Shown in pieces: positions 8 through 28,466 of a DNA stretch of 36,119 nt. The position numbers were made by a program, and so were the translations under genes. Source of the DNA: a virus (Duplodnaviria > Caudoviricetes); IMG/VR virus record IMGVR_UViG_3300012931_000052, positions 1 through 36,119 of that record, one strand, 5' to 3'. The notes under the pieces were generated by a model. The model did not search any database, was not told the origin of the DNA, and saw only the letters and a list, made by a program, of their open reading frames with translations. The first letter of the stretch is position 1. The number at the start of each line of letters is the position of its first letter.

Positions 8-706
8 ATGGCTACAATTCCAACTTATATGACCAAGAAAGGTGTATTAACCGCTGGTCATGGTATAATCAAAACTGGCACTGCTGCCAGTGAAATTCCG
101 TTTGGGGCTTTTGTAACAAGGGCCGCAGATGGTACAATTAAGGCAACTGTCTGTGCTGGAACCCCCACTTATGACTATCTGGGTGTTGCCGTCAACGACA
201 TGAAGGAACAACGCCCTTACGATGGCTTTTATGCCGCAGGTAAAAAGGTACCTTATGTTGCAACGGGCACCGCCAATGTCATGCTACTCGGTGGACAAAC
301 CGTTGATTCTGGTGACTTTGTAAGGCTTCAATTTGCTTCAACTGCTCTGGGAGCAGGTACCGAGAATACTGGCTTCGTTGTGCCTGAAACTTCCCCTGCT
401 GTAAGGACGGCATATTCTGTAGGTAGGGTCTTGGACGTTGCTGACAGTGGTGCCTCGGCATATAAGCAAAATTTCACTTCCATTAGCAATGACATTGTTA
501 CCTTTGGAAGTTCGACCATCAAGGGATACCTTGACCTGCATGATGGTGATTACCTAGTTCTTGACTCTGATAATCATGCAGAAGTCAATATGGTTGCCGA
601 CGTGAACTATTCCAGTACGGCTATCGAGCTTGTCAAGACTCCACTAGCCCATTCTGGAAATCTGTATGCGTATACCTTGACCCAAGTAGAGATCGAACTG
701 ATTTAG
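8..706 (+). CDS. Probable capsid decoration/cement protein
   Basis: Directly upstream of the major capsid gene; Gly/Ala/Val-rich with the I-P-F-G...G-V-A-V...A-G-x-x-V...G-x-A-x-V pattern typical of head decoration proteins. Confidence 0.65.
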   Translation: MATIPTYMTKKGVLTAGHGIIKTGTAASEIPFGAFVTRAADGTIKATVCAGTPTYDYLGVAVNDMKEQRPYDGFYAAGKKVPYVATGTANVMLLGGQTVDSGDFVRLQFASTALGAGTENTGFVVPETSPAVRTAYSVGRVLDVADSGASAYKQNFTSISNDIVTFGSSTIKGYLDLHDGDYLVLDSDNHAEVNMVADVNYSSTAIELVKTPLAHSGNLYAYTLTQVEIELI

Positions 707-764: not shown

Positions 765-1694
765 ATGGCTGACACAGGATTACATTATGGTTCCTTTATT
801 CCAGAAGAGGTAGTTACTGCCTGGATAACAACTATTAATGATTATGAATTGAATTACAGACCGGAACTCATCGCTAGGAATATCCTACCCTACAAGGATG
901 TAGGTCCCCAAATCGACATTGATGCAGTAACTCATATCCAGACAACTTCTGGTCGCGCTGGTATCGTGGCTAAAGGTGCCTCACCTGACCCGTTCACCAT
1001 TGCTGCTGGTGTTGAGAAGCATGAGATGTACCAAATCTCAACGGGCTTTTATGTGAATGAGAGAGATCTTGCTAAGACTCAAGGTCCTGTCATGAAGACC
1101 GCTGAAATCAATGAAGCAATGGCCAAGATCCACGCAACCGAAGATTATATCGCCATTAATGGTGATAGCGGTCTCGGCATTACTGGTATTGTTGGAGCTG
1201 CTCATGCCAACACACGTGGCAAGGTACTACCAACCAATGGCACTGCCACTTCAGTTGATGTACCAAATGCTGGTCCGTGGGACAGTTCTGGAGACACCTT
1301 GGATCCTTATGAGGATGTAGTTAATGCCATCAAAATGATGGATCCTAGGTTCAAGCCTTGGGGCATGATCGCGGATAGGGCAACACTATATAACCTGTTC
1401 AAGGTGGATTCTGAGAGGGTGCCTTTTGCCGACTACATTGGCAGTTTGTTTGGAAAAGGCGAGAATGATCGCTCCTGGATGATTGAGTCTCAGTTTACTC
1501 CGACTGGCTACGCATATGTTATTCCTTATTCGCCTCAAGCCGCTGAGTTTGCTGTTTCAACCGAAATTGATGTGGCAGACGACTATCCGAAGGAGAAGGG
1601 CGGAAACTATTGGGTTGAGATCAAGGAATGGTGTAACCCGATTGAGGTTCACAGCCCCAACAGTTTCGTAGAAATCGATACAACTCCCACGTGA
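765..1694 (+). CDS. Major capsid protein, HK97 fold (encapsulin/linocin-like type)
   Basis: 309 aa; AGGAG RBS; 'LIARNILP', 'EDYIAINGDSGLGITGI' and 'DPYEDVVNAI' segments resemble encapsulin-like phage capsid proteins; follows the decoration gene. Confidence 0.8.
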   Translation: MADTGLHYGSFIPEEVVTAWITTINDYELNYRPELIARNILPYKDVGPQIDIDAVTHIQTTSGRAGIVAKGASPDPFTIAAGVEKHEMYQISTGFYVNERDLAKTQGPVMKTAEINEAMAKIHATEDYIAINGDSGLGITGIVGAAHANTRGKVLPTNGTATSVDVPNAGPWDSSGDTLDPYEDVVNAIKMMDPRFKPWGMIADRATLYNLFKVDSERVPFADYIGSLFGKGENDRSWMIESQFTPTGYAYVIPYSPQAAEFAVSTEIDVADDYPKEKGGNYWVEIKEWCNPIEVHSPNSFVEIDTTPT

Positions 1695-6942: not shown

Positions 6943-7389
6943 TTTTCTTTTCCTCCAAACGCCTTATCAGGCAAGTACTACTTAGTTTGCTTACTATTTA
7001 AGTCTTTTGGTTCGACTTTTTCTTATCAAAGTCTTAAACCAACAATCACTAATAGTACTTGATAGTATTTAAATTTATTGGTCGAAAGTTACTATATTAA
7101 TTAGTATAAATTTATATAAGTAGAATTTTTCATTTGCTACTTATTGATTTTTAACTAATTTTAACTTATATTATTATTATATATACATTTTATATATATA
7201 GTATTATAAATAGTATATAGTAAGATAATAGAGTAAAATAAGTATTAGTAGACTAATAGTTATAGTAATATGGTAGTTATATTAGGTAAAATAAAAATGG
7301 CCAAAAACTGCTATAAGTAGTAAAAGTTACTATATACGTTCGGACTTACTGACTAATAACGATTTTCAAAAAATAGTATAAGGTACACA

Positions 7390-10282: not shown

Positions 10283-10284
10283 AC

Positions 10285-11805: not shown

Positions 11806-11810
11806 AATTA

Positions 11811-12509: not shown

Positions 12510-12680
12510 AATCAGAACTAAATTTAACCTTTTTTATAGCATGACTTTATATAGTATTAACACTAATAAGAGTATATGTTAGATTTATGGTGTAAGCGGA
12601 CCTGGAAAGCCAGTGGGAGAAGTGTGTCCGGAATGGAGGTGAAGGTGTACTTTAAAAATAATATTTTTAAAAAAAAGTAT

Positions 12681-12980
12681 TTAATCATTTATTACTAATA
12701 ACCTAGTACCACACATATTGCACTTGTAGTGAGTTCCTATTAACTCGCCTTCAACTCGATCTTCGCTTACTTTGGCGAAGTTTCTTACCGTCCCGTGATA
12801 GTTCTTACTACCTTTGAGACAAATTGGACAACATGGTATTTTGCCACCGTTTTGGTGATCAAACATCGACTGTTCTTGTACTAAGTTACCATCCTCATCT
12901 TTATCGAACATCTTCATTACATTTTCACTAATGGAATTTTGCGTGTATAGTTTTGCTAATTGGTTTAAACTTCCTGTCAT
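12681..12980 (-). CDS. Zinc-ribbon protein in an antisense cassette
   Basis: CPIC...CNMC; GAGGTGA RBS and its own promoter. Confidence 0.6.
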   Translation of the reverse strand: MTGSLNQLAKLYTQNSISENVMKMFDKDEDGNLVQEQSMFDHQNGGKIPCCPICLKGSKNYHGTVRNFAKVSEDRVEGELIGTHYKCNMCGTRLLVIND

Positions 12981-12985
12981 ATTAA

Positions 12986-13031
12986 TTCACCTCACTAACT
13001 ACTAGTACTTCTGAGAATATATAACTTACGG
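12986..13031 (-). promoter_or_regulatory. 46-nt promoter/RBS unit, copy 1
   Basis: Ungapped match to 18281..18326 and 31085..31130; on the minus strand reads BRE-TATA-AGTACTA-GAGGTGAA. Confidence 0.75.
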
Positions 13032-13061
13032 TTGAAAATAAGAAAAGTTTCATAAAAAAGT

Positions 13062-13790
13062 TTAAATACAAAGTTCATGGATCTTGCTGACAAGTAAGTC
13101 TACCTTGCGTGGGACTAATCCAGGAGCACTATTGATCTCAAAGATCGTTGACTTGGTTCCGCTTGGTGTTTGGATAGTAGCGCAATCTACGGCAGCAAGA
13201 TCAAGTCCGCACTGGTTGACGGCATCTCTGGCTGCTCTCTTCAAATCAGTAGGAAGTGATGCAACCCGGACCCACCTAAAGAAACAACCTGCCTGATGGT
13301 TTCTGATGAGGATGTTAGGTGTAGGACATTCTTTCAAACTTGCCTCGATGATCCTATCCTTAAGCAAAAACAACCTAAATTCATCGATTTTTTCAACCTT
13401 TTCCTGGATGTAATGTCCTGCTGGATCGAACCTCCTTAGTTCTTGTGGGGTATTTACAACCCAGAAGAACTTACCCTGAAAATGGGTGTTTTTGCGCACG
13501 ATTACAGGAAACTGGATATCACCTTGTAGGGCTTGGTCCCAGGAGATTAATTTAGGCGTCGGGATATTATGCTCCATAAGGAGTTTCTTGCACCTGGGCT
13601 TGTTAGAAGAGGTCCTAACGGCGTCTAGCCGATTAATAATTGCTCCGTCTTCTGGATCAGGTAGAGATGCGTTTCCATAACGTAAGACTATACCTTCCCC
13701 TCTGATACCTTGTTCACTATAGTCGGTTTGTAATGCTCTAGCTAGTGCTCGACCTGTTGGCCTAGCCTTTCTGCAACCTAATACTGTCAC
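13062..13790 (-). CDS. ATP-grasp ligase (RimK/YheC-like)
   Basis: SNK...IPTP, FPVIVRK..H.QGK, YIQEKV...EFR, IRNH, CGLDLAAVD and FEINSAPGL motifs; GTG start after AGGAG. Confidence 0.88.
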   Translation of the reverse strand: MTVLGCRKARPTGRALARALQTDYSEQGIRGEGIVLRYGNASLPDPEDGAIINRLDAVRTSSNKPRCKKLLMEHNIPTPKLISWDQALQGDIQFPVIVRKNTHFQGKFFWVVNTPQELRRFDPAGHYIQEKVEKIDEFRLFLLKDRIIEASLKECPTPNILIRNHQAGCFFRWVRVASLPTDLKRAARDAVNQCGLDLAAVDCATIQTPSGTKSTIFEINSAPGLVPRKVDLLVSKIHELCI

Positions 13791-13814
13791 TTAATTCACT
13801 CCTACTCGTTACTT

Positions 13815-14156
13815 TCATAGATCAACTATAAATGCATTTAGGTTAAACTTTGTTGCTTGTTTGATCATATTCTGAGTTCCCTGACTATTTGGAAATCGGA
13901 ATGCAACTAGAGCATCTGCATATTTTGCCATTTCTCGGTTTCTGATCGGGCCTGCTGATTTACCATATGTGGTCCACTTAGCAGGAAATTTTACTATTGG
14001 GATGGCGTGTTCCAGTGCCCATCTCTCCCCGAGGGTGTCTGCTCCACTAGCACAGCCTGATACAACTGTCGTGATTTGCCAGGGAACATCTAGCATATGG
14101 CGGCAGAGTAACTCATAGTTCGTGAAGTTTCTTGACCCAGCAATAATTGTTATCAT
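13815..14156 (-). CDS. SLOG-superfamily protein (YspA-related/DUF2493)
   Basis: IIAGSRNF, VVSGCASGAD, FPAKW..YGKSAGPIRNREM and SQGTQNMI motifs. Confidence 0.85.
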   Translation of the reverse strand: MITIIAGSRNFTNYELLCRHMLDVPWQITTVVSGCASGADTLGERWALEHAIPIVKFPAKWTTYGKSAGPIRNREMAKYADALVAFRFPNSQGTQNMIKQATKFNLNAFIVDL

Positions 14157-15855: not shown

Positions 15856-16536
15856 ATGACAGAACCATATAGAGTTATAATTACAAATGATGTAGATGGC
15901 GATGAATCTCTTGATCTTGAGTTGGGTCCTACCATCGAAGAATTAGTAGTAGAATCAACACCATTCACTGCATCATATGATACAACGGCGTTTTTCCGGG
16001 TGTTGTATAGATTCATTACTGTGCAGAGTCAAGCGGAATTCACTGCTGGAACAAACGAGGACGCTGATATTCCTTGGGAAAATTATGCTGTTTATCAGGT
16101 ATTGTCCGAGGATGAATGGCCACAATTACTTAATTCTAGGTCAATACCCCTCAGTTATGTTTCAGACGCTCAAAAATACATGGCATATTGTCACTTAATT
16201 GCAGATTATTTTGAAAAAGGAAACCCAGATTGGAGCTTCCGGAGCCAGAGTCAGGCACCCGGTGTTAGTTTTAGCAGAGGAGAAGATACTGGACCAAGAC
16301 TCGCATTAAAAGCCATGCTAGATACAATTGAAAATGCTTATAGAAGATCTGTGGTGAGTGGTGGCCGCGGAGCAGCAATTGTTATCAACCAAATCTCGGA
16401 TGCTAGGAAATATCCAAAACGCTGGAAGCGTTCTGGAATTCCTGCATATGATGGTTCTTCCGAGGGCTATGACTCTGAAGACGTTGAGGATATGGGTGTT
16501 GATTATAATAGCCAAAATGAGAATTCTGCTTGGTGA
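15856..16536 (+). CDS. Putative head-tail adaptor
   Basis: Helical AYCHLIAD followed by the S-x-S...GVSFSR hairpin typical of adaptors; position ahead of the neck genes; GGAGG RBS. Confidence 0.45.
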   Translation: MTEPYRVIITNDVDGDESLDLELGPTIEELVVESTPFTASYDTTAFFRVLYRFITVQSQAEFTAGTNEDADIPWENYAVYQVLSEDEWPQLLNSRSIPLSYVSDAQKYMAYCHLIADYFEKGNPDWSFRSQSQAPGVSFSRGEDTGPRLALKAMLDTIENAYRRSVVSGGRGAAIVINQISDARKYPKRWKRSGIPAYDGSSEGYDSEDVEDMGVDYNSQNENSAW

Positions 16537-17396
16537 TTTTTATTTACACTTTTTTAGGTAAACCTGGTAAAATGTACGAGATGAAATTGAACTATAAATG
16601 TGAATTTAATGGCCAGGATAACAAATGCGAAGGACTGAATCCTGACGATTCCTTACGAGGTCTTATAGATAAGTTCCAAAAACTAACTGATAGTGACTCT
16701 TTTTCTGAAAAACAAAGAAAGGAGTTATCTGATAAATTTTCATTGTTGATTTCTTCTGGAAAACTTAGTGAAAAATCTCAAAGGAAGGCAGAAAGATTCT
16801 TAAAAGTAGTCAGTCGTATTGTACCAAATTCAAAACTTGTTACTACTTCTTCAGAGTCTATTAATATTGTTCCTAAAAAGCAACTTAACGAAAATGATTT
16901 ATATAACATTTCTTCTAAGTTATCTTCGTCTGAAAAAAATACACTATATAAATATACTATTCCTGATTCAGATGAAATAGAAACCTCATTTGAATATGTA
17001 AATAAGTATGCAAATAATATTAGTAATGCTCCGTCTGAAACAAAGAAATCAATAAAGGTTATAGACGATATCATGAATAAATCTATTATACCAGATAAAA
17101 TCCTATTATATAAAGGTGTTTCAGATAGTCGAATATCTAACATTTTGAATTCTGGAAATTATAAACCAGATGGTTTTGTGTCTACTTCCATTGATAAACA
17201 AAAGGCATCAGAATTTGGCGAGAAATATATATTAGAATTAAATATTCCTAAAGGAACAAAAGGTGTATTCCTTGGAGATGAAATGAGTAATGCTCCAGAA
17301 GAAAAGGAAGTATTATTAAACAGAGGATATGTATTTAAGGTTGTTTTGACTAAGAAAGACGGAAATAAGACTATAGTATCGATGAATAGGATGTGA
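16530..17396 (+). CDS. VIP2/Alt-like ADP-ribosyltransferase 1
   Basis: YKYT...YVNKY, LYKG (Arg replaced by Lys), FVSTS, IPKG and EKEVLLNRG motifs; start uncertain, possibly ATT 16542. Confidence 0.85.
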   Translation: MVIFIYTFLGKPGKMYEMKLNYKCEFNGQDNKCEGLNPDDSLRGLIDKFQKLTDSDSFSEKQRKELSDKFSLLISSGKLSEKSQRKAERFLKVVSRIVPNSKLVTTSSESINIVPKKQLNENDLYNISSKLSSSEKNTLYKYTIPDSDEIETSFEYVNKYANNISNAPSETKKSIKVIDDIMNKSIIPDKILLYKGVSDSRISNILNSGNYKPDGFVSTSIDKQKASEFGEKYILELNIPKGTKGVFLGDEMSNAPEEKEVLLNRGYVFKVVLTKKDGNKTIVSMNRM

Positions 17397-18019
17397 TAAG
17401 CTTGCCTTATCCAAAACGCATTCGTTATACCCATCGATTAACCCTCTACAAAAACATCAATGATATCTTTAATGGTCCGATAACTTCCTCAATAACAGGC
17501 CTATCTTATCCAACAGAGGATTTTAAATTAGCACTAACCTCCTCGGGAATTTGTCGGGTAAAGGTTACTGGCTTATTGGATGGTGTATCTGTTACAGAGC
17601 GTATTTCATTTGGCGAAGCCGGAACCCAATATTCTCTTAACACTTTTGATACAATTTCAACGTTGACTTCTAATTATTTTGTAGCAGGAACCACCTTGCA
17701 GGTACAGGCCGTGGACTCTGTTGGAATGCCCCTAGTCTGGAAACAAACTTTTGGTCCGTACGGTGCGGAATTTGGCCAACAAGGCGGAATGTCTGCTCAA
17801 ATTCAAGCAAATGAACTAGGCTTGGGAAGCAAAATTGTTCATTATTGCAGGGTGGAGCGAGCGGCACCTGTCAGCCGAGACATGACATTTACGATTAGTC
17901 CAAATTATCCAGATCAAGTGTTCGTTCCAGTAAGTGATTTTGAAAATATATCAGTGCCGCCTTCATATGTACCGTCTGAGTGGGCCTTCCGAAGTGTCGC
18001 TAAGTATGTTGGTGAATAA
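17393..18019 (+). CDS. Putative head-closure/neck protein
   Basis: 208-aa beta-rich ORF in the neck region; start may be TTG 17402. Confidence 0.4.
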   Translation: MISLPYPKRIRYTHRLTLYKNINDIFNGPITSSITGLSYPTEDFKLALTSSGICRVKVTGLLDGVSVTERISFGEAGTQYSLNTFDTISTLTSNYFVAGTTLQVQAVDSVGMPLVWKQTFGPYGAEFGQQGGMSAQIQANELGLGSKIVHYCRVERAAPVSRDMTFTISPNYPDQVFVPVSDFENISVPPSYVPSEWAFRSVAKYVGE

Positions 18020-18035
18020 AAAAATAAATTAAATA

Positions 18036-18275
18036 TTAATATTCTTCTTCTCGGTCAATACAGTCATCATATTCTTTCCAAGAATCCAGACCGCATAATT
18101 CGTGCATGTACTTCGCGGCCTGTAGTCCTGTATCGAAGTATTGGCCCGCTACGTAATATTTTCCAGTGCTAGGAGAATATCCAGCCCATAATGAGCCATC
18201 TTCGCCTCTTGGAAGTTCAAAACTGATCACATGGGTCTGTTCAAGTTTCTTTGTCATTTCTTTAATTGATAGCAT
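18036..18275 (-). CDS. Hypothetical protein in an antisense cassette
   Basis: 79 aa; preceded by the 46-nt promoter/RBS unit. Confidence 0.6.
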   Translation of the reverse strand: MLSIKEMTKKLEQTHVISFELPRGEDGSLWAGYSPSTGKYYVAGQYFDTGLQAAKYMHELCGLDSWKEYDDCIDREEEY

Positions 18276-18280
18276 ATTAC

Positions 18281-18326
18281 TTCACCTCGTACTATACTAG
18301 TACTTATTAGAATAAATAGTTTTTGG
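18281..18326 (-). promoter_or_regulatory. 46-nt promoter/RBS unit, copy 2
   Basis: ttcacctcgtactatactagtacttattagaataaatagtttttgg on the + strand. Confidence 0.75.
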
Positions 18327-18790
18327 TCGTGATAAACATAACTTCTCAAATTGAGCCCATAATCCAATTTATCTTGGATGAGCTGCACCAAGACAGTGAA
18401 CTTGTTACCCTCTGCGACAACCAATTCTATACAGGACTGCTCCGAATCCCGGTTACACTAACTGCACCTCACTATACAAGAGTTGGTATCCTTTATGCAA
18501 GTGATAGTGGAGATGGCTGCTTCTTTACTCAAGTGCGGGACTTTGACAAACTTGATATCTCTATAATCATAACGGTAGTTTGTGGTCTAGGAGAAAATGA
18601 TAACCATTGCAGAAAAGTTATTAATGCCATGAAAACCTTATTTTCAACTCATAGAAAAAAGACCACAGAAACTTATAAAATTTATATTAATAAAATTGAT
18701 TCCAAGGTGGAACCCACTGATCAGGCCAGATGGACCGGAACCATTACAATGAATGTGGAATATTATACAGCAGTACCTGACATTGATTGA
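18323..18790 (+). CDS. Putative tail-terminator-like neck protein
   Basis: Helix-beta-beta-helix-beta pattern ending RWTGTITMNVEY; size and position fit; start codon uncertain. Confidence 0.45.
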   Translation: MVVINITSQIEPIIQFILDELHQDSELVTLCDNQFYTGLLRIPVTLTAPHYTRVGILYASDSGDGCFFTQVRDFDKLDISIIITVVCGLGENDNHCRKVINAMKTLFSTHRKKTTETYKIYINKIDSKVEPTDQARWTGTITMNVEYYTAVPDID

Positions 18791-19116
18791 GTGGACTTCC
18801 ACTCTTGGAATTCTTGGTCTGAAGAGAATTCTATTATGCATGAGCAACCTCTATATGCACGTTCATCTGTTATGTATCTAAGGCAGGCATCTATGGCATA
18901 CTGTAGGTCCTTCGATCTAAAGGATCGGAATCGACGTCCGCCTTCGCGCTCAAAAGTCCAAACATCATCGGTATTATATTTAATAGTCTTATAATATTTT
19001 ATACCATGAACAGATACATAATCATCTACCTCATCCCAGTTGATTATCAGGATGTATGTTTTTCTAGGATCTAGGATGTTTAAAGTACCATCTGAATTTA
19101 ATGTGATTGTTTTCAT
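18763..19116 (-). CDS. Hypothetical protein, tandem paralog B
   Basis: TLNSDGTLNI, NW, KYY, EREGG and DLQY motifs shared with 19113..19442. Confidence 0.7.
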   Translation of the reverse strand: MKTITLNSDGTLNILDPRKTYILIINWDEVDDYVSVHGIKYYKTIKYNTDDVWTFEREGGRRFRSFRSKDLQYAIDACLRYITDERAYRGCSCIIEFSSDQEFQEWKSTQSMSGTAV

Positions 19117-19442
19117 ATCAGGTTCCTTTCTTTGGCGTTTTCGAATTCTTCTTTCGACTCAAATTCAAAGATCTTCATTAAGTCATATGCATGATTTGTG
19201 CTGTCTTGATACCTTCTTAGATTTTCACTCAGGCAGTACTGTAGGTCCTCTTTTTCTAGTCCAAACCAACCTCCTTCGCGTTCTAGTCGGAAATATCCAT
19301 CGGATTTGACTGGAAAGTAGTATTTTTTTCCACTGAGTCTTACCCATGATCGTTCTTTTATCCAATTGACAACTAAGACAAAGAACCTATCTGGATTGAC
19401 TATGTTCATACTACCATCTGGGTTGAGTGTTAACTCTTTCAT
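19113..19442 (-). CDS. Hypothetical protein, tandem paralog A
   Basis: TLNPDGSMNI, NW, KYY, EREGG and DLQY motifs; TATA about 25 nt upstream, so probably leaderless. Confidence 0.7.
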   Translation of the reverse strand: MKELTLNPDGSMNIVNPDRFFVLVVNWIKERSWVRLSGKKYYFPVKSDGYFRLEREGGWFGLEKEDLQYCLSENLRRYQDSTNHAYDLMKIFEFESKEEFENAKERNLI

Positions 19443-19488
19443 AATAGGTTGTTTACTACTTTACGTATATATACATTTTGCTTTGTGG

Positions 19489-19524
19489 ATCGTAAAACAC
19501 TAACTTTTACCTTCCAATATGATT
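19489..19524 (+). promoter_or_regulatory. Putative late promoter/activator site, copy 2
   Basis: ATCGTAAAACACtaacTTTTACCTTCCAATATGATT. Confidence 0.7.
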
Positions 19525-19548
19525 ATACTTCTATCAGGTGATTCTTTC

Positions 19549-19887
19549 TTGACAAGACTTATTGATTTATTTCGGGATGGTCAACTATCCCTAAGCGAGT
19601 ACCAGACATATTTGGATCTGGGCTTTGAACCAAGTGAAAGCGTGCAATTAAATTCAGGTCGCAGTGCCGAACTTGTAACACTTTCTTATATGGATTTGGG
19701 AGCAGGCCGATCTTGGACAGTTAAGGCCGGCGAAACCTTAATGGGCTATATTGGACCTTCTCAAGATATGACCAATAACGGAACCATCACAAATGCCGGC
19801 GATATCCTGATGCAGTATAATGCCGGCACATTGATCAATACTGGAACCATAGCAAACACAGGTAACTTTACATTAAAATCATTATAA
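19549..19887 (+). CDS. Virion protein with short beta-helix-like NxGTI repeats
   Basis: TTG 19549 after AGGTGA; NNGTITNAG, NAGTLINTGTIANTG repeats. Confidence 0.55.
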   Translation: MTRLIDLFRDGQLSLSEYQTYLDLGFEPSESVQLNSGRSAELVTLSYMDLGAGRSWTVKAGETLMGYIGPSQDMTNNGTITNAGDILMQYNAGTLINTGTIANTGNFTLKSL

Positions 19888-19907
19888 ACAAACTTTGGTG
19901 ATTATTT

Positions 19908-20483
19908 TTGACAGGAACTCTAATAATGGATGGCGGAAGTATAACTTCTGATGTTGCAAAGACAGATTATGAAGTACAAATCCCATTGGTCCCAGTGTTT
20001 TCTTCTGGAACTTGGACCGCAACGGATAGCAGTGATGTTGTTATTATAACAAGGACTCCTGCGACTCAAACCGATTATTATAAAATTCCAATTATTATGC
20101 CTTTTCGGTCAACTGCTTTGAAGGGTGCTAAACTCAAATCCGTTACAATGGTTGTTACTCTAGGTGGGACTTTGTCAACATCTTCAGATGATATTGAAAT
20201 GAATATTATAAAAGTTACCACCCCAGCAGATGGATCTTCTCCAGTTGGTTCTGTTTTAGCCGGTGATTCTGGCAGTGATTACCAAACGGCTTACGACACA
20301 AAAGCAAAACGTCTTGTTTCTGGGACACATAATTATATTGTCACAATTCCAACTGGAGAACAAGCATTTTTGGCAAGTGGTGAACAACTATATCTTAGAC
20401 TAAAGGTAATAGATGCTGGTTCTGCTGACCTGACTTGCGTCCTCAAGGGTGCTGTTGCCTCTTTTGATTTTAATGGATTGTAA
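19908..20483 (+). CDS. Hypothetical beta-rich structural protein
   Basis: TTG start after GGTGA; Thr/Ser/Val-rich. Confidence 0.55.
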   Translation: MTGTLIMDGGSITSDVAKTDYEVQIPLVPVFSSGTWTATDSSDVVIITRTPATQTDYYKIPIIMPFRSTALKGAKLKSVTMVVTLGGTLSTSSDDIEMNIIKVTTPADGSSPVGSVLAGDSGSDYQTAYDTKAKRLVSGTHNYIVTIPTGEQAFLASGEQLYLRLKVIDAGSADLTCVLKGAVASFDFNGL

Positions 20484-20521
20484 ATAATATAAGGTTAATT
20501 TTTTTTGGTTAGGAGAGTCTC

Positions 20522-21517
20522 ATGGCAAATATTGGAATCGTGTCAACTGCTAAGGGAGAGATGCTTACTAATGCGCATATAGCATCTCTTTCACGGGCAG
20601 ACCAAGGTTACTACGTCCTCTCTGGATGTGATGTTAACCAGTCCGGAACCCCTGGAATGTCCGTGGTGGTAGATTCTGGTTATGTCCAAGTTACTTATTC
20701 AACTGAAAGAAAGACAGTAACTGGCGGTACATTAACCGTTGCAACTGCAGATGCAACTTATCCAAGAATTGACGTAATTTATGTGAATACAGCCGGAACT
20801 ATCTCAATTTATGCTGGTACGCCTACCGCTATTTCTCCCTCTAGTAAGACTGATTTCAGACAAATGGCAACTCCGGCACCTGGAAGTAGTATTCCTAATG
20901 GTGTCATACTAGCCTTGGTTTATGTCGGAGCAGGTGTAACCTCAATATTAAATGCCCAAATTTTAGACATTGCATCATACGGGCCATATTGTGTTGAGGC
21001 ACCAACTTCAGCCACAACTAGTGGTTATGTCCCTCAGTGGAGCTCTACTGCAAAGACACTAGGTACTGGTTTGGCAGTGGGCACAAGTGCAAATAATCTA
21101 CTCCAATTAAATGCAAGTGCCCAGATACCAGCAGTGAGTGCTGCACTAGTCACTGGACAAACTAAACAAATTACTGTTATTATTGACGGCGGAACAGAAG
21201 TAATTTCAACTGGTGTGAAGGCTAGAATACCAGTTGATTATGCATGCACTATAAGTAATTGTACTATGGTAGCTGACCAGTCTGGCAGCATAGTGGTTGA
21301 CATATGGAAAGTTGCGTATACTAGCCTTCCTGCTACTGTTTCGAATACAATAACCGCTTCGGCAAAGCCTACGCTCTCTGCAGCCTTGAAATATCAGGAT
21401 ACTACTCTTACGGACTGGACGAAGACAATCGCGGCAGGCGACTGGTTATATTTCAATGTAGATAGTTGCACTACGATAACCCAGATTACTATTGATCTAA
21501 AAGTGGTGACAACATAG
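20522..21517 (+). CDS. Tail fibre/baseplate-associated protein
   Basis: GMSVVVDSG, TADATYPRIDVI and GTSANNLLQLNASAQIPAV motifs common in fibre proteins. Confidence 0.65.
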   Translation: MANIGIVSTAKGEMLTNAHIASLSRADQGYYVLSGCDVNQSGTPGMSVVVDSGYVQVTYSTERKTVTGGTLTVATADATYPRIDVIYVNTAGTISIYAGTPTAISPSSKTDFRQMATPAPGSSIPNGVILALVYVGAGVTSILNAQILDIASYGPYCVEAPTSATTSGYVPQWSSTAKTLGTGLAVGTSANNLLQLNASAQIPAVSAALVTGQTKQITVIIDGGTEVISTGVKARIPVDYACTISNCTMVADQSGSIVVDIWKVAYTSLPATVSNTITASAKPTLSAALKYQDTTLTDWTKTIAAGDWLYFNVDSCTTITQITIDLKVVTT

Positions 21518-22539
21518 TGACGTATTATTATTTTTTATTTGATGGTACAGGTGGGACTCCTACTGGATATACTGCAATAACTGCTTATGATGGGAAGTAT
21601 CTTAGATTTTCTAATTCTTATGCTGGTTTTGGATCAACTGGTGGATCTGCTACTCATACACACACAACTAGTTCGGCATCGGTTGGTACATGTGGTACAT
21701 ATTCAGATAAACAACAAAGTGGATCTGGTGCCGCAATTCAACAAGCACATAGTCATTCTGCACCAACATCTTATGGAGGTCTATCTGCAAATAATGCTCC
21801 TTCGTATTACACGTTGCAATTGATACGAATAGATATGACAACTTGGGAGAATTCCTACAAGAAGTTTCCAATTGGTTCTATACTATTGGCATCAAGTACC
21901 CTTTCCGGATTTACAGAATTGTCAAGATTTACGTCTGCAGATGGTAAACTAATAAAACTTGGTACAGCAGGTTCCACGGGTGGATCTGCTACTCATACAC
22001 ATACACTAACAGGCACTTTGCAAAACAATACCAGTACATACAATTCGAATACGTCATCAGACTATCCTGCTTATCCAACATTAGCTGATAGTCATAATCA
22101 TACAGTTTCAATAACCACACCTAGTGTTGATATAATGCCAATAAGAATACAGACGAGAATGTATAAAGTTTTGTCTAAGGCGTATAGAGCAGCAGCAGGT
22201 TGTATTGCATTTGCAGATGGTAATCCAAGCGCAAATTGGGAATTAGTGGATTGGAATGGTTATTTCTTACAAAGTGTAGATTCTGATGTAGTAACAACTG
22301 GATCTAGTACACATGCACATTCTTCATTGTCTGGGACAAGTTCAGGGCACAATCCGGGTACGGTAGCAGCAAAAGACGCAAATGCAATCAATACAGCTAA
22401 TCGTCCTCACTATCACAGTTTTTCCATAAATATGGATAGTATAGCCCACACTCCTGAGTATGTGGATTTAGTGCCCATTCGTTTAAAGAATACTCTACTT
22501 GCACAGAAACCAAGATCTATCTGTGTTAACTCTAATTAA
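21517..22539 (+). CDS. Tail fibre/collar-like protein with HxH repeats
   Basis: Three repeats containing GSTGGSATHTH or GSSTHAH plus a second HxH motif each. Confidence 0.65.
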   Translation: MTYYYFLFDGTGGTPTGYTAITAYDGKYLRFSNSYAGFGSTGGSATHTHTTSSASVGTCGTYSDKQQSGSGAAIQQAHSHSAPTSYGGLSANNAPSYYTLQLIRIDMTTWENSYKKFPIGSILLASSTLSGFTELSRFTSADGKLIKLGTAGSTGGSATHTHTLTGTLQNNTSTYNSNTSSDYPAYPTLADSHNHTVSITTPSVDIMPIRIQTRMYKVLSKAYRAAAGCIAFADGNPSANWELVDWNGYFLQSVDSDVVTTGSSTHAHSSLSGTSSGHNPGTVAAKDANAINTANRPHYHSFSINMDSIAHTPEYVDLVPIRLKNTLLAQKPRSICVNSN

Positions 22540-22541
22540 AT

Positions 22542-22973
22542 ATGACAATTGAAGAAATTGCCGAGAATATTGGCATGGATTTTGAAAACAAGATCAGGGA
22601 AAAGATCCTGTCCAATGTCCCACCCGAGAATGCTCCAAGTACCATTGCAGCGAAAGGTTCCTCCCATACTCTAATCGATACTGGAGAACTTCTAGCAAGC
22701 ATTACCCATATTGTGGAGCAAGGTCCCACTGGACTGACTATAACTTCTGGTGTTCTCGACGAGGAAATCGCCAATAAGGCAGCACCCAACGAATACGGTG
22801 TCGTTTGGGAAAATCGTCCACGAAAGGGAAAGGAAGAAAAAGAAGGTCATGGTCCTTGGTTTATCCCACCTAGATCCTTTATTCGCAGTACATTCGATGA
22901 GAATATCGAAGAGGTCCTTGACAATGCTCAAGACCAACTTTACAATTATGTTTTTAAGAAGTTAAGCAAGTAA
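22542..22973 (+). CDS. Tail-completion/virion morphogenesis protein
   Basis: PENAPSTIAAKGSSHTLIDTGEL, NEYG and IPPRSFIRSTFDEN motifs. Confidence 0.8.
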   Translation: MTIEEIAENIGMDFENKIREKILSNVPPENAPSTIAAKGSSHTLIDTGELLASITHIVEQGPTGLTITSGVLDEEIANKAAPNEYGVVWENRPRKGKEEKEGHGPWFIPPRSFIRSTFDENIEEVLDNAQDQLYNYVFKKLSK

Positions 22974-23077
22974 AAAAGAAGTTATTAAAAACTTATAATA
23001 ATTTTTTAACAAAATTAGGAAAAAATAAAAATGAATACTACAAAAGTAAAATATGAGGAATCTTTATTGTCGCTACG

Positions 23078-23650
23078 ATGAACGTGACTGAGCTGAATGG
23101 ATCTGGCCCGACCGCTACAGTCATCACACAGGGCCGTTATTGCACAATGGACAGTTATAATCCTGGATTAAGTAATCCTTGTGTTGTGCCTGCTACAGGC
23201 GTGAACTATTCCTACTGGAAGCACCACTATATAGCCTTTTCGGGAGATTTTACCCAGATTAGTAATATTAGGTGGTATACAAGCGGAAGCGTACGGACGA
23301 ACTGGGCACTTGGTACTGATGGCGGTCTCTTTGTTGGCGTCAAGTCAACTGGAGACAACGGATGTCCCGTTGGTAGTTATGACCAAGCAGACGGTGTCCT
23401 GGGAACTTCTGGCTATGATATGGACGATGTTACAAATGGTCACACCTACTACAAGTCAGGTACTTCCAATCACGCCGTGCCTGCGGATGCCGATACTTAT
23501 GTTGCTGGCAGTACTTTGCTTGTGGATAGTGGACCATATACCACTGCTGGAAGTTCCAATTGTGTTGTAACCCAAGTCATAATCGATACAGATGCTACGC
23601 AAGGTGACAAAGCTTCGGAAAGTTTGGTGTTTCGCTACGACGAGATATAA
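23078..23650 (+). CDS. Hypothetical structural protein
   Basis: Gly/Thr/Tyr-rich, ending FRYDEI; may start at the in-frame ATT 23066. Confidence 0.55.
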   Translation: MNVTELNGSGPTATVITQGRYCTMDSYNPGLSNPCVVPATGVNYSYWKHHYIAFSGDFTQISNIRWYTSGSVRTNWALGTDGGLFVGVKSTGDNGCPVGSYDQADGVLGTSGYDMDDVTNGHTYYKSGTSNHAVPADADTYVAGSTLLVDSGPYTTAGSSNCVVTQVIIDTDATQGDKASESLVFRYDEI

Positions 23651-23665
23651 ATAATAAAATTTAAA

Positions 23666-23710
23666 TAAAAATAGGAAAATGAACTTACTCCTATTTTTAT
23701 TATTTTTTCT
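23666..23710 (+). terminator. Hairpin plus T-tract terminator
   Basis: TAAAAATAGGA...TCCTATTTTTA 11-bp inverted repeat followed by T runs. Confidence 0.55.
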
Positions 23711-23750
23711 ACCAAAAACTTTATATACTAGTTCTTTTAATTAGTATATT

Positions 23751-24938
23751 ATGACAGCACAGAACAAATATTGTAAAAACAAAGATTGGCTATATGATCA
23801 ATACGTAAATAAACGCAAATCTATGCCAAAGATTGCAGAAGAACTTGGTATACAAGCAGAAACAGTACGTGCTTGGATCCATAAGCATGAAATACCTATA
23901 AGATCAGGTTCAGAAAGTCATTCTGGTGATTTACATCCATTGTTTGGTAAACACCATACACCAGAAGGTAAGAAAAATATATCAATATCTCTTAGTGGCG
24001 AGAATAATCCAAACTATGGAAAGAAAAGACCAGAGCAATCAGAACGAATGAAAGGTTCTGGTAATCCAAGGTATGGTGCGATTATTTCTAATGATCAGAG
24101 ACATCAACAAACAAAATCAATGATAAAATTTTATGAAGAACATCCAGAAGCAATTATAAATTTGTCAGAAAAAAGGAAACAATATTACATTGATAACCCA
24201 GATGCTGCTAGAAAGCATGCCGAAAAAATAAAACAGTATTATAAAGAACATCCTGAAGTATTACAGCAAGCAGCAGAAAAACGTGTCCAATACTATTCGG
24301 AACATCCATTATCAGAAGAAGAAAAAGAGCAGCGTGCTTCTCATCTATATGATTACTTTAATAGCCACCCAGAAGCCCGAAAAGAACACTCAAAACTTAT
24401 GAAGGTTAATAATCCTTCGATGAGACCTGAAGTTGCTGCTAAAATTTCTGATAGCATGGTAGAGTGGCATAAAAATAATGCAAATCCAGTGGGAACTGGT
24501 AGTATGCCAGGAAGATTCTTTACTTGCAAGGATGGAAATAAAATATGGTTAAGATCATCATATGAATTTAGAGTTGCAAGTATTCTTGAAGAATTAGGAA
24601 TATCTTGGAAATGTGAGCCATATGCTTTTCCACTTGATAGTTTACATACATCATATCGTCCGGACATTTATTTACCAGATAGTAATATTTGGATAGAAGT
24701 AAAAGGTTATCTTAGTTGGAGTAGTAAACAAAAGCTTATTGAATTTAATAAAATATACCCAAACGAAAAATTGTTATTAGTATATCTGAGACAAATAGAG
24801 GAAATCGAAGAAAAAGTCGTAAGAAAAGAAGTAATCAACATACAAGATTACTGCATAACATTAGAAGACCAAATTGAATCATGGAAATTAGAAGATATAG
24901 AATTAGAAAAATTAAAAACAACATTACATATATTATAA
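23751..24938 (+). CDS. Free-standing homing-endonuclease-like protein (HTH, NUMOD3-like repeats, PD-(D/E)XK nuclease)
   Basis: N-terminal HTH (SMPKIAEELGIQAETVRAW), HPLFGKHHT and NPNYGK motifs, C-terminal RSSYE...YRPD...IEVKG; own BRE/TATA at 23712-23727; AT-rich. Confidence 0.8.
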   Translation: MTAQNKYCKNKDWLYDQYVNKRKSMPKIAEELGIQAETVRAWIHKHEIPIRSGSESHSGDLHPLFGKHHTPEGKKNISISLSGENNPNYGKKRPEQSERMKGSGNPRYGAIISNDQRHQQTKSMIKFYEEHPEAIINLSEKRKQYYIDNPDAARKHAEKIKQYYKEHPEVLQQAAEKRVQYYSEHPLSEEEKEQRASHLYDYFNSHPEARKEHSKLMKVNNPSMRPEVAAKISDSMVEWHKNNANPVGTGSMPGRFFTCKDGNKIWLRSSYEFRVASILEELGISWKCEPYAFPLDSLHTSYRPDIYLPDSNIWIEVKGYLSWSSKQKLIEFNKIYPNEKLLLVYLRQIEEIEEKVVRKEVINIQDYCITLEDQIESWKLEDIELEKLKTTLHIL

Positions 24939-24984
24939 TAATATTTATATCTTCTTTTTTATAACACCAAATTTAAAGCAAACT

Positions 24985-25611
24985 ATGAGGCAAGTTAAAA
25001 TGAAGCAAGGAACCCATATTATAGCACTAACCCCAGGATACATCAATATCCAAGTTGTACCGAAATTTTTAAACGAAACTAATAATAAAATTAATATTCC
25101 CGAGGAAGATCTTGGTTATATTATCCCGTTAAAACTTTTCTTAACAGACTCCTTTAATAAAGAATTTTGTGGGGTCTTTGAAATTGGTACGGTCTTCTTT
25201 AATGAAAATATTCGCCGAGACATCTTGGATGAATTATACCGGGATAATGTACAATTTGATATTTTTGTCCGGCAAGTGAAGTCCGAGGAACAAACAGGTC
25301 CCAAAGTCCTCCAAGAATACCGAAATTGTAAGTTTTATCGCCAAGAACTTTGCATACCAGAAGTTGGCCTAATAACATTCTATAGGTATCATTTTAGCAA
25401 CAGTGACAAACCGTGGGAAATTTCCACGGAGAAGATCGAAGCCTTGCGCATGCCCAATCAATACATATATGATTATGCTGTATCAAAGGCGATAAAGAAT
25501 CTACAATATAGTCTAAAAGACATTTGGAACGAACAGAAACAAGAAAATAAGCAAGAAAATAAGCAAGTTACAGCCAGTGAATATGTGAATATTGTTCGTT
25601 CTGGTGAGTAA
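24985..25611 (+). CDS. Tail-tube paralog (candidate tube initiator/baseplate protein)
   Basis: YIIPLK, GVFEIG, FDIFV and YRNC segments parallel YIVPLK, GDFEIG, FTIII and FNRC in 33122..33640. Confidence 0.55.
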   Translation: MRQVKMKQGTHIIALTPGYINIQVVPKFLNETNNKINIPEEDLGYIIPLKLFLTDSFNKEFCGVFEIGTVFFNENIRRDILDELYRDNVQFDIFVRQVKSEEQTGPKVLQEYRNCKFYRQELCIPEVGLITFYRYHFSNSDKPWEISTEKIEALRMPNQYIYDYAVSKAIKNLQYSLKDIWNEQKQENKQENKQVTASEYVNIVRSGE

Positions 25612-26427
25612 ATGTCTTCCATTATTGAATTAATGTGGATAAAGGTTTATAAAGACGAGCAAGGTCAAGATCGCTTTATTCCACAATTCCGAGACGATGG
25701 CACCCAACAATTCTGGACAGATACTCAGGATATTAAGCCCTATAAACTTGTTATAACGCCGATTGGTCATGAGCTTGCTGACAAACTTGTCGCCAACAAG
25801 ATCCCAGCAATTTCGGTACCACTTCCCAAATATACTTTTTTCCTGCAACCAGATGACCAAGTTAAAGCCTACTGGGACAATGAGATAGAAATTAATTCCC
25901 ATTATGAGTGCTCGGTTTGCAGACACACTTGGATGCACATGGATTCTAGTAAGTTCTCACAATGCCCGAACTGCTTGGCAACAGACATTTGGTTTTGTAG
26001 AAGGTGTTCCGTGGATGCCAGTAAAGACCTCCTAATGGAAAAGGAGCGTCGCGAAATCGAGTATGAATCCTACTCCCAGAAACTAGCATCACAATTTGTA
26101 ACGGCAAGTGACCAAGACAAAAATAGCATTCGCGAGAAGCAGGTTGCTGCAAGAAAAGCCTTAGACGAATGGGAAATTGCTAACCAAGTTGTCAAAATTG
26201 TTGACCAAAGCAGGGTCCATAGAAACTCCGTTAAGGACGAAAAATCTGGTAAAGGCAAGCGCGGAGAAATCAACTGTCCAAATTGTGAGATACCTTATGG
26301 ACTCAATCGCAAAAACTTGTTATATCGGGTTCATGACGTAATTGAAAACACGGATTACGTTATCTTGGTAGAAGGTAAGTTCAAACTTATCATCAAGCAA
26401 GATGAAGTAGAAACATATTCTTTATAA
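25612..26427 (+). CDS. Zinc-finger protein with four CxxC motifs
   Basis: CSVC, CPNC, CRRC and CPNC, with a coiled-coil insertion. Confidence 0.6.
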   Translation: MSSIIELMWIKVYKDEQGQDRFIPQFRDDGTQQFWTDTQDIKPYKLVITPIGHELADKLVANKIPAISVPLPKYTFFLQPDDQVKAYWDNEIEINSHYECSVCRHTWMHMDSSKFSQCPNCLATDIWFCRRCSVDASKDLLMEKERREIEYESYSQKLASQFVTASDQDKNSIREKQVAARKALDEWEIANQVVKIVDQSRVHRNSVKDEKSGKGKRGEINCPNCEIPYGLNRKNLLYRVHDVIENTDYVILVEGKFKLIIKQDEVETYSL

Positions 26428-26437
26428 ATTTTTTGAG

Positions 26438-27145
26438 GTGAATGTATTGTATAAATTCATTGGTAAGCCTGGCCAAGTATATGAATTAAAGTTTAATTAT
26501 AAATGCGAATTTAATGGCACCGATAATAAATGTAACTTAGAACAAGGCACTGAAGATATAATAAAAGGTAAATACAAAGAACGACCTTCTGAGAAACAAA
26601 TATCCCAAGCAAATAAACAATCCATTAGTATTTTTGATAAATCAAGTGAAGAGGAAATACAAGCAATAGATGATCTTACCGCAGAAAGCGATCCAATCAA
26701 TGAATATATATATTCAAATGATAAAGAAAGTGATTTTGATGAGCATCAAATAGAACGTATAAGAGAAAAAATTTTTCTTATAGATAACGTGATGAAAAAA
26801 GCAAAATTACCTTCTGATATGACTGTTTTCCGGGGTGTAAGTGAAAAAGAATTTAATATAATTTCTAAACAAGGAGATAAGGAATCATTTACGATGCGTG
26901 GCTACAAAAGCACCACAATTGACCAAGACGTTGCGGAAGCATTTAGTGAATCCGATACAAAAGGAAAGAATTTATTCTGTAAAATACATGCACCAAAAGG
27001 TTCAGAAGTTCTGGCAATAACACCTGAATGGAGTAGAAGTAGGGGTGAATCTGAGTTCCTTATAAATCGTGGTACTTCATATAAAATAAATAAAATAGAA
27101 GAAACCGATAGTGCCAGAATAATAGATATAACTATCTTAGGATAA
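26438..27145 (+). CDS. VIP2/Alt-like ADP-ribosyltransferase 2
   Basis: INEY, VFRG, YKSTT, APKG and ESEFLINRG (R-S-ExE) motifs; probable start TTG 26447. Confidence 0.88.
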   Translation: MNVLYKFIGKPGQVYELKFNYKCEFNGTDNKCNLEQGTEDIIKGKYKERPSEKQISQANKQSISIFDKSSEEEIQAIDDLTAESDPINEYIYSNDKESDFDEHQIERIREKIFLIDNVMKKAKLPSDMTVFRGVSEKEFNIISKQGDKESFTMRGYKSTTIDQDVAEAFSESDTKGKNLFCKIHAPKGSEVLAITPEWSRSRGESEFLINRGTSYKINKIEETDSARIIDITILG

Positions 27146-27158
27146 TTTGAGGTGACAC

Positions 27159-28466
27159 ATGCTTATAGGAGAAACACCCCTTGGCGAACTTCCAGGAATT
27201 GGAGACTCTTTCTCAGTAAATACCATATCTTACAGCATGGATCAGTGGACCATCTTTGTGGGTTCTGAACCAATTGAAGATCCACCTGGTGCAATTCGAT
27301 ATTCTCATAGCAGGCAGTCAGACACCTTACTCCTAAAGAGTGTAACCAAGTCCTGGGACATGGGCTATGCTATAGCAAACAGTTACAATTATAAAACCTT
27401 CAGAATGAATACCGGACTCAAGGACACTCTAAGAGCAATTGATATGTCCTTGACGTTGGCTCCGTGCTTTGAGTTAACGGTGCCATCTACAAGCGTTTTG
27501 AATGCCTTGGTTTGGTCATGGGCAGAAGCACTTGATAGTGTTTGGCGCCAAATGGATACAATGGCAACGGCCCTAAAAATAGACTCTGCAGAAGGAACCT
27601 ACTTAGATATTGCTTGGGGTCAAATCTACGACATGCCCAGGATTTATCAAGAAAGTGACACTGATTATAGAGATCGTCTAAAAACAAGAACATTGGTTCT
27701 AACCTCGTCAGGTACCAAAGCCAATTGTGAAACCATTATAGACAGTATTATTGGAGAAGTCTCAACTAATGTTGATCCAAGGTATCCTGCCAGTGTTGAC
27801 ATTACATTTGACACCGTTAGTGCTATGCGTTCTGCTTTTGCCAAAAAGACTGTCCTGGATAATCTTATCCCTCAGATGTTAGCGTCTGGTATCACTTACA
27901 ATATGTTCTTACCTTATCTTGACTATTACATGAACCTATATATGAAAGGTCCACTAACCCTACCCTATAACTTTTATTGTGCTATTACCCAGTGGGATAA
28001 TGATAAAACATTTGATTTCGATATAATAAATGTACTTCAGACAACCTTATCTTATGATTTTGATCTAGCCAACATGAAGCGAAAAACTATTCAACATGGC
28101 ATGTACAACTATATAAAGGATAGCAAGGAAAAGGCCATTCTTTGTGATGGTTTACTTAAAAAGACCGTCCTAAACCAACCTAATTTTGACATATTAAATA
28201 AAAAGCATAATATAGTCAAACAAATCATAATGGATCTATATGCTAGTAAAACTGACTTAGAAAAAACCGTTCAACTGGATTCCGTTCTAAAAGGAACCAA
28301 ACGGCGATTCTTACGCATGGAAAATAATCTTGTATTCCAGAACAGTCAGGCCTATACATTCGACATAGTGACTAGGTTGCTTGCTAAAAACTTGGACATA
28401 GATATATTGACTAAGAGAACTTTCCCAAAGAGACAAGGCATGACAATCAAATTGGTAGGTGCTTAG
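27159..28466 (+). CDS. Baseplate wedge-like protein with repeat extensions
   Basis: AEGTYLDIAWG...PR...ESDTDYRDRLK motif of myovirus wedge proteins; ~14-aa repeats at the C-terminus. Confidence 0.7.
   Translation: MLIGETPLGELPGIGDSFSVNTISYSMDQWTIFVGSEPIEDPPGAIRYSHSRQSDTLLLKSVTKSWDMGYAIANSYNYKTFRMNTGLKDTLRAIDMSLTLAPCFELTVPSTSVLNALVWSWAEALDSVWRQMDTMATALKIDSAEGTYLDIAWGQIYDMPRIYQESDTDYRDRLKTRTLVLTSSGTKANCETIIDSIIGEVSTNVDPRYPASVDITFDTVSAMRSAFAKKTVLDNLIPQMLASGITYNMFLPYLDYYMNLYMKGPLTLPYNFYCAITQWDNDKTFDFDIINVLQTTLSYDFDLANMKRKTIQHGMYNYIKDSKEKAILCDGLLKKTVLNQPNFDILNKKHNIVKQIIMDLYASKTDLEKTVQLDSVLKGTKRRFLRMENNLVFQNSQAYTFDIVTRLLAKNLDIDILTKRTFPKRQGMTIKLVGA

Follow-up and report, generated by a model that had tools for sequence, protein, structure and literature searches.

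Two ADP-ribosyltransferase genes share an N-terminal tag

What does it mean that two otherwise divergent enzyme genes of a tailed virus begin with nearly the same short peptide? The question is raised by IMG/VR record IMGVR_UViG_3300012931_000052, whose 36,119 bases (hereafter, the window) form a single contig with major head, neck-1, baseplate and sheath genes, and with two genes for ADP-ribosyltransferases (ARTs), here named ART1 and ART2. A first-pass annotation had noted the shared peptide (hereafter, the tag), and the observation is real and larger than first noted, as the tag recurs on many other proteins of related viruses. Reading cleavage, packaging, host and targets from sequence, we consider it probable that both ARTs belong to a set of effectors that a myovirus, probably of methanogens, matures by protease, packs into its head and injects. 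The two genes and their parts are as follows.

16533..17396, + strand: ART1, VIP2/C3-class ADP-ribosyltransferase; open reading frame (ORF) open from 16530; PF03496 at E 1.9e-26 over residues 120-282; GC 29%
16545..16583, + strand: ART1 leader YTFLGKPGKMYEM, predicted propeptide or prohead-targeting part; the same leader type is on solo tagged genes of relatives
16584..16592, + strand: ART1 KLN, predicted prohead-protease site (cut after Asn); motif enriched in the protease/scaffold
16593..16628, + strand: ART1 Y-K-C-x8-C loop, the N-terminus after the predicted cut; swap junction
16629..16838, + strand: ART1 spacer module, about 70 aa, shared with other tagged proteins, where it also follows this loop
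26447..27145, + strand: ART2, VIP2/C3-class ADP-ribosyltransferase; ORF open from 26438; PF03496 at E 2.8e-23; GC 31%
26450..26488, + strand: ART2 leader YKFIGKPGQVYEL, matching the ART1 leader
26489..26497, + strand: ART2 KFN, predicted prohead-protease site; the sole KFN among 108 tag copies
26498..26533, + strand: ART2 Y-K-C-x8-C loop, from the tag census; a low-confidence stretch of the structural model

ART1 and ART2 belong to the VIP2/C3 (R-S-E) class by profile, motifs and, for ART2, fold, and NAD-dependent transfer is predicted. Both exceeded the cut-off of Pfam ADPrib_exo_Tox (PF03496) in a profile scan. The catalytic motifs are K195 (Lys replacing the first Arg), STS218-220 and E258-x-E260 (EKE) in ART1, and R132, STT158-160 and E204-x-E206 (ESE) in ART2; an ExE motif in this class predicts arginine acceptors. 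The AlphaFold model of ART2 (14 sequences; predicted local distance difference test, pLDDT, 81; ART domain confident) matched the Lmo0066 ART and C3-class structures at E 1e-13, and its residues 13-42 had pLDDT <50. The ART bodies are divergent, as first described, but their similarity goes a little beyond the motif level stated then, at 28% identity over 109 aa (E 1.8e-13). A word-index protein search with the ART1 body returned only ART1 itself and no close relative. Matches to phrog_802 (Alt) were partial and weak (E 1e-4 and 2e-6) and covered the shared catalytic region only; with 235-288 aa against a 674-position profile, the two proteins do not qualify as Alt orthologues.

ART1 likely starts not at the listed TTG 16530 but at GTG 16533, where a GTGA overlaps the stop codon of the preceding gene. 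For ART2, the likely start is TTG 26447, not the listed GTG 26438, and its spacing to GAGGTGA equals the spacing at the ATG of the gene that the sister virus G001 has in the ART2 slot. Both genes are AT-rich, as had been noted (GC 29% and 31%, versus 40% for the window and 39-43% for four flanking genes).

The tag, at 16545-16628 in ART1 and 26450-26533 in ART2, is 28 aa long rather than about 29, with 21/28 residues and 60/84 bases identical (BLASTP E 7e-15). The best tag match in 2,000 shuffles of ART1 was 9/28; a six-frame scan of the window found no third copy. Eighteen tag codons differ, 11 synonymously and 7 non-synonymously. Because the DNA is only 60/84 identical and 11 of the differences are synonymous, the peptide is the conserved entity, and a recent duplication of the tag DNA was rejected on the same grounds. 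The tag consists of three parts, namely a leader, a K-L/F-N tripeptide and a Y-x-C...C loop. A prediction of a tag dimer with zinc scored 0.06, which counts neither for nor against.

The tag is a portable module in related viruses

IMG/VR was searched with alignments of the tag and of the protease described below, along with the Genome Taxonomy Database (GTDB), a library of 1.8 billion proteins and 50,697 GenBank phages. The exhaustive search of the library gave 19 matches, 17 with the motif including both window proteins (P0011 and P0018, without the motif, were dropped). A word-index protein search with the tag found only itself, an ESM Atlas search reached a best score of 0.79 and gave no lead, and tag variants gave nothing credible among the GenBank phages, tblastn being weak on queries of 26-35 aa.

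The core motif of the tag family is K-[LQMFES]-N followed by Y-x-C-x(4-13)-C. KxN with the loop occurs in 108 copies on 23 of 25 related contigs, some of which are near-identical strains, and 95 of these copies have KLN. When the Cys loop was searched without a KxN filter, Asn stood at position -3 in 88/90. Three tag copies have a non-Cys or mixed motif in place of the loop (TNPNRDALGRF, YSDDQPRD and VNHCHNP). Similar motifs, HDxxGRF and PRDxxG, occur in bacterial phage head proteins; our searches retrieved none of these.

Some relatives carry MuF polyproteins with up to 7 tags between their domains, the tagged MuF proteins ranging from 1,186 aa to 2,602 aa in the loci and to 3,123 aa in the library. 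The polyprotein tags are preceded by a 14-residue spacer (consensus YLxxVxxFI), and Asp or Asn lies 14 residues upstream of 50/68 internal tags. By Pfam scan, the N-terminal MuF domain of these polyproteins is absent from ART1 and ART2. Parts of the window proteins recur in other combinations: the ART1 spacer is 40% identical to P0009/P0026 (E 2e-11) and 33% to P0019, and P0008 joins the leader of ART2 to another loop and another ART-like body. A full tag also lies within the putative protease/scaffold ORF of L027, L028 and L029. KxN is present at the portal C-terminus in 9/13 ORFs, on which we did not rely, as some sites are inside the conserved core and several ORFs are truncated. In G002, a MuF gene (L013:6204-7397) is split by an intein-like segment that weakly resembles the model of the archaeal PolD large subunit, and its C-terminal end is nine residues past KLN.

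The tag is not ART-specific. We did not find such a portable cut-plus-loop module in print or among the 50,697 GenBank phages; the motif letters were not literature-searched, and subscription journals were mostly outside our coverage. The literature likewise gave no description of such a repeated tag, or of MuF-ART arrays, in methanogen viruses, with the polyvalent-protein supplements and the vir525 paper, which may bear on novelty, outside that coverage.

The tag tripeptide is shared with the putative protease/scaffold

In the related virus G004, a 723-aa protease/scaffold gene adjoins, on the left, the counterpart of the window's first gene, and a 1,288-aa MuF polyprotein, a tagged GNAT-like gene and the portal lie upstream of it. 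By content of [KR][LMQF]N, this protease/scaffold ranked first of 86 ORFs in G004 (8 seen, 0.9 expected), and its orthologue ranked first of 153 in the complete genome of G002 (6 seen, 0.36 expected); Arg entered this pattern after the scaffold had been inspected. The strict, tag-derived K[LMQF]N gave 5-11 sites versus 0.3-0.9 expected in each of 9/9 orthologues (p <=1.1e-5 each). In an unbiased count of tripeptides outside the protease domain, KLN came first (42 versus 2.3 expected, in 9/9 proteins) and KQN fourth. These tripeptide counts used 9 of 11 loci, two near-duplicates being omitted.

An invariant Asn stands at both borders of the protease domain, which also has invariant His65 and Ser122 (all in 9/9 orthologues); the latter two are the putative catalytic dyad, by analogy with HK97-type proteases. 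The lineage protease is homologous to the annotated prohead protease of the archaeal virus ANMV-1, which itself matches the head-maturation-protease PHROGs at E 1e-21, and its model (pLDDT 52) matched DUF2213 at E 4.6e-4, plus prohead proteases, in BFVD. Position, ANMV-1 homology and the BFVD matches give the protease label moderate strength; a word-index search with the G002 protease domain found only itself. Because KxN is enriched in the protease/scaffold and flanks the protease domain, it is a predicted maturation cut site. The first-pass annotation had taken the tag, with its Cys pair, for a packaging or processing signal. A processing role is retained, but it most likely resides in the KxN tripeptide rather than in the Cys pair, and the tag is composite. 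The protease/scaffolds of ANMV-1 and of vir525, a second archaeal virus, have 1 and 0 K[LMQF]N sites. An Asp-specific counterpart there is a hint only: Asp aligns with the first invariant Asn and each protein has 8 D[SA], yet no tripeptide stood out.

KxN could instead be a docking motif for the inner capsid wall or the portal, with the cargo left uncut or cut by the polyprotein's own zincins. Embedded zincins have been proposed as processing enzymes of polyvalent proteins (PMC5512222), HExxH units are common in the cargo (14/77), and the protease assignment is moderate. We nevertheless regard docking as unlikely, given the invariant Asn at both protease-domain borders, the small residues (A/E/S) that come next in 57/70 scaffold sites, and the short MuF protein of G002 and MuF region of G004, which differ in zincin content and both keep KxN. 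Cleavage at KxN by the prohead protease is the reading we prefer.

The cargo behind the tag is diverse

Cargo units of >=60 aa (103) fell into 77 clusters at 70% identity and into 29 single-linkage groups. Among the 77 representatives, 31 matched ART families (29 over the cut-off), matches below the cut-off were to GNAT (2) and a zincin-type family (4), and HExxH was present in 14; a PHROGs scan of 45 further units added two ParB-like proteins, one zinc protease and another ART. One relative, P0007, carries ART-PolyVal. Several unrelated conflict domains per polypeptide are found in the related MuF polyproteins and not in the single-domain window genes. The diversity of cargo expected at the outset is therefore present, and the possibility raised then, that the tag occurs only on these ARTs as an integral part of their fold, was rejected, as 46/77 cargo types have no ART match and the tag is unstructured in the model.

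Across 33 ART domains, the catalytic Glu is kept in 33/33, ExE in 23/33 and the first Arg in 19/33. Their tree is star-like, with 19/30 inner branches open, and no origin is assignable. The proteins might be packaged and matured without being early host effectors, acting in the particle or on phage proteins or DNA, or being decaying passengers of a recombination-prone tag. Such a view would suit the 46/77 types without an ART match, most of which have no family, the small size of some units (<100 aa, one of 15 aa) and the patchy retention of the first Arg. We judge it quite improbable, with the catalytic Glu and most ExE motifs kept despite star-like divergence and a domain mix that fits injected polyvalent proteins, and we favor injected effectors. 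A NADAR domain gene (L018:13959-14420) might serve to remove ADP-ribose in a virus rich in ARTs.

Both ART slots are variable and lie within late operons

Both slots are variable, sister viruses showing an exchange right at the tag end, a replacement or no insert at all, which bears out the earlier suggestion of swappable effectors. In G001, the ART1 slot has the identical loop peptide followed by a different ART (27% over 117 aa); the DNA match to the window stops at 16630, two bases past the last Cys codon, and resumes at 17402, in the next gene. In L059-L062, four of the five loci found (the fifth is G001), the ART1-flanking genes abut with no insert. GTGAT is present at both ART1 ends, and L062 has it a single time, at the empty site. 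At the ART2 slot, G001 carries an HNH gene and G002 an unrelated one. Contigs from run X3 skip 16538-17443 (one side resting on only 33 bases) and 26433-27145, and the letters between the skip borders are not known.

The neck and baseplate setting described at first holds (neck-1 at 22542-22973 and baseplate at 27159-28466 by PHROGs), and both ARTs are coupled into late structural operons by overlapping start and stop codons. The gene upstream of ART1 resembles a head-tail connector, as a lead only (Atlas scores <0.9). Directly 3' of ART1 and ART2 there is no small immunity ORF, the next genes being conserved structural-region genes of 208 aa and 435 aa. RNA from run X4 gave scattered near-identical pieces, none of those listed lying on either ART, and we make no claim on expression. 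That the window ARTs are non-packaged cytoplasmic enzymes of takeover or superinfection exclusion (ModA/ModB-like), with an inherited tag persisting as a DNA recombination handle, would fit their position outside the head module and the end of G001 DNA homology at the tag end, but is very improbable given that 11/18 differing codons are synonymous and the DNA is 60/84 identical, so that the peptide and not the DNA is conserved, and given the coupling of both genes into late structural operons.

Two genes at the left end tie the window to a head module.

8..706, + strand: likely head decoration gene, 99% protein identity to G004
765..1694, + strand: major capsid gene, phrog_264 major head protein

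Positions 1-1657 have 91% DNA identity to G004, which links the window to the G004 head module just left. In run X1, the first gene of the window is connected to the protease gene by a 762-base contig, and MuF, GNAT and portal are on a 13,207-base contig with a depth of 11.1, versus 10.6 for the window contig; as the window may itself come from run X1, this evidence is not independent. P0017, of 1,572 aa with 5 tags, is on a 13,207-base contig. By similarity and depth, the total for the virus of the window is likely about nine tagged units, two in the window and seven in the likely head module. The centre of the system appears to be the MuF polyprotein locus upstream of the window, as seen in relatives.

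Host and lifestyle

The archaeal host proposed earlier is probable from capsid, sheath, portal and release-factor matches. Among the 50,697 phage records, the window capsid protein was matched only by ANMV-1 (35.9%), the sheath only by vir525 (34.3%; host Methanosarcinales), and the related portal only by vir525 and vir524 (Methanomicrobiales). The GTDB scan gave three contigs of 1.5-3 kb in two bacterial assemblies and one Methanofastidiosum assembly, likely mis-binned; the lineage was absent from 33 other genomes of Methanofastidiosum's order, and the scan found no provirus. No integrase was found among the 125 related-virus and 48 window proteins scanned, a subset of all ORFs, and a search with DNA polymerase B did not discriminate between hosts. 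The host is likely a methanogenic archaeon.

In G001, an archaeal-type release factor gene (L008:12437-13351, - strand; eRF1 domains 2 and 3, 304 aa) lies beside the baseplate genes, with an apparent start within eRF1 domain 1. The best solved relatives of this class-1 release factor, 3agk and 4af1, which we take to be archaeal release factors, score well above eukaryotic eRF1.

Proposed route from late gene to host cell

We propose that ART1 and ART2 are solo members of a tagged cargo family and that the tag would route them into the prohead. Late co-expression with the neck and baseplate genes is expected because of the overlapping start and stop codons with structural genes. The leader (in solo genes) or the YLxxVxxFI spacer (in polyproteins) would then dock the precursor on the prohead core, a step modelled on the T4 capsid-targeting sequence (CTS). 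The DUF2213-like protease would cut after KxN, destroying the scaffold and removing the leader; the same cuts would release from the MuF polyprotein one enzyme for each tag, and the spacer would be excised through a second site (K-Q-D/N) located 14 residues upstream. In the weakest step, the Cys loop would be a keep-and-eject mark on fragments retained in the head, a role suggested because the Cys loop accompanies cargo sites and is missing from scaffold sites; we put it forward tentatively, with somewhat less than even confidence. After injection with the DNA, the ARTs would modify host proteins early in infection, with ADP-ribosylation of arginine predicted because of the ExE motif and with RNA polymerase, ribosomes and defence proteins as candidate targets named at first, and recombination just behind the loop would bring new cargo.

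Several points weigh against this proposal. The protease and MuF genes are outside the window, linked to it through a 91%-identical relative and same-depth contigs, and the distance of the window ARTs from the head module, 16 and 26 kb, would set them apart from most solo tagged genes. A portal, MuF or protease gene is within 1.1 kb of 22 of the 32 solo tagged genes with a window-like leader, a count inflated by the fetching of loci around tags or the protease, and the other 10 have no head gene in the fetched locus. ART2 carries the rare KFN, and ART1 has Lys for the first Arg (as do 5/33 family ARTs), so its activity may differ. The nine scaffolds are related, so the pooled KLN count is not independent, and a structural repeat within a coiled coil could account for KLN and KQN. 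The lineage's own protease members reach PHROGs only at E 0.04-0.13, and Pfam and NCBIfam scans of the protease gave no match. Its model is poor (pLDDT 52), with no PDB Foldseek match at E 0.001 and a structural Z of at most 4.6 (VIA; T4 gp21, 4.2).

In its most general form, the proposal is a 'cut-and-keep' code, in which one Asn-specific prohead protease would read KxN everywhere, the Cys loop would mark the fragments retained and ejected, and any late gene capturing the 28-aa tag would join the injected arsenal. We hold this version to be rather doubtful. If true, archaeal tailed viruses would have their first defined signal for loading cargo, one that would also serve as a tool for delivering proteins into methanogens. 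The lineage bears on two questions, the division of MuF and polyvalent proteins into active enzymes and the entry of MuF-less cargo into the head, and offers exact predicted cut sites as a readable answer. Probable archaeal viruses, in which large arrays of injected effectors had been reported as scarce (PMC5512222), would join those that carry them, and the tag flags dozens of unnamed domains as candidate methanogen host-takeover or anti-defence factors.

Comparison with known systems

The system would work like the T4 CTS and Alt combined with MuF polyvalent proteins, by analogy, and the window genes are members of neither family. In T4, the CTS of IPI-IPIII is a short N-terminal peptide ending in a prohead-protease site processed by gp21, and Alt is ART cargo (PMC9026906). 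Alike are the short N-terminal peptide on unrelated cargo, ending in a (here predicted) protease site, the ART cargo, and the accessory genes that vary between relatives (PMC9026906). In contrast, the predicted cut is after Asn here and after Glu in T4, and we claim no sequence likeness; the Cys loop would stay on the cargo, the module repeats inside polyproteins, and the host is probably archaeal.

Jamet et al. (PMC5576092) described MuF toxins that are followed by small ORFs, and MuF-fused ARTs are a precedent (PMC9503650). As in the MuF (SPP1 gp7) polymorphic toxins, MuF lies between portal and scaffold/protease and the C-terminal enzymes vary, ARTs included. Unlike them, the proteins here have up to 7 tagged units rather than one toxin, MuF-less solo genes (the window ARTs included) use the same tag, and ART1 and ART2 are not followed by a small immunity ORF. 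Polyvalent proteins (Iyer et al., PMC5512222) are likewise large, head-associated and mix ART, zincin, GNAT and ParB-like domains; that paper describes few of them in archaea, with nearly all those >1,000 aa bacterial, and proposes that embedded peptidases process them. Here, the repeated inter-domain site matching the scaffold points instead to the prohead protease.

In phiKZ and SPN3US, many head proteins are cut at one tripeptide and propeptides have redundant, motif-bearing sites (PMC10052503, PMC9026906), but those propeptides are long and unconserved with A/S-x-E sites, whereas the tag is short and portable with a predicted KxN site. ANMV-1 and Caudoviricetes sp. vir525 are alike as the sole phage-record matches for the window capsid and sheath, respectively, and differ in their near lack of K[LMQF]N in the protease/scaffold, the vir525 MuF being 208 aa with no tag. 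A long MuF protein is on record from haloarchaea (PMC7911831) and ARTs are listed in two haloviruses (PMC8651126); PMC8879888 and PMC7824862 were also compared.

Other features of the window and its relatives

Window positions 8678-14156 hold two COOH.NH2 ligase paralogues and class-II glutamine amidotransferase-like, RimK-like ATP-grasp and SLOG genes, a phiEco32-type peptide-tagging module conserved in G001. A caspase-domain (Peptidase_C14) gene at 4776-5513 is 33% identical to its G001 counterpart, versus 75-88% for its neighbours. The intergenic region at ~7093-7366 has copies of 72-75% identity in G001 (two places) and G003 and is a possible regulatory element. At 18763-19442 (- strand), two paralogous genes of 109-117 aa without a family match lie on the opposite strand within the late operon; G001 has four copies at the same place, and G003 and G004 have more. 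The AT-rich NUMOD3/endonuclease gene at 23751-24938, absent from the G001 slot, is likely a homing endonuclease. In G004, L020:879-10438 carries genes of the 7-deazaguanine pathway (FolE, QueD, QueC, TGT-like and radical SAM).

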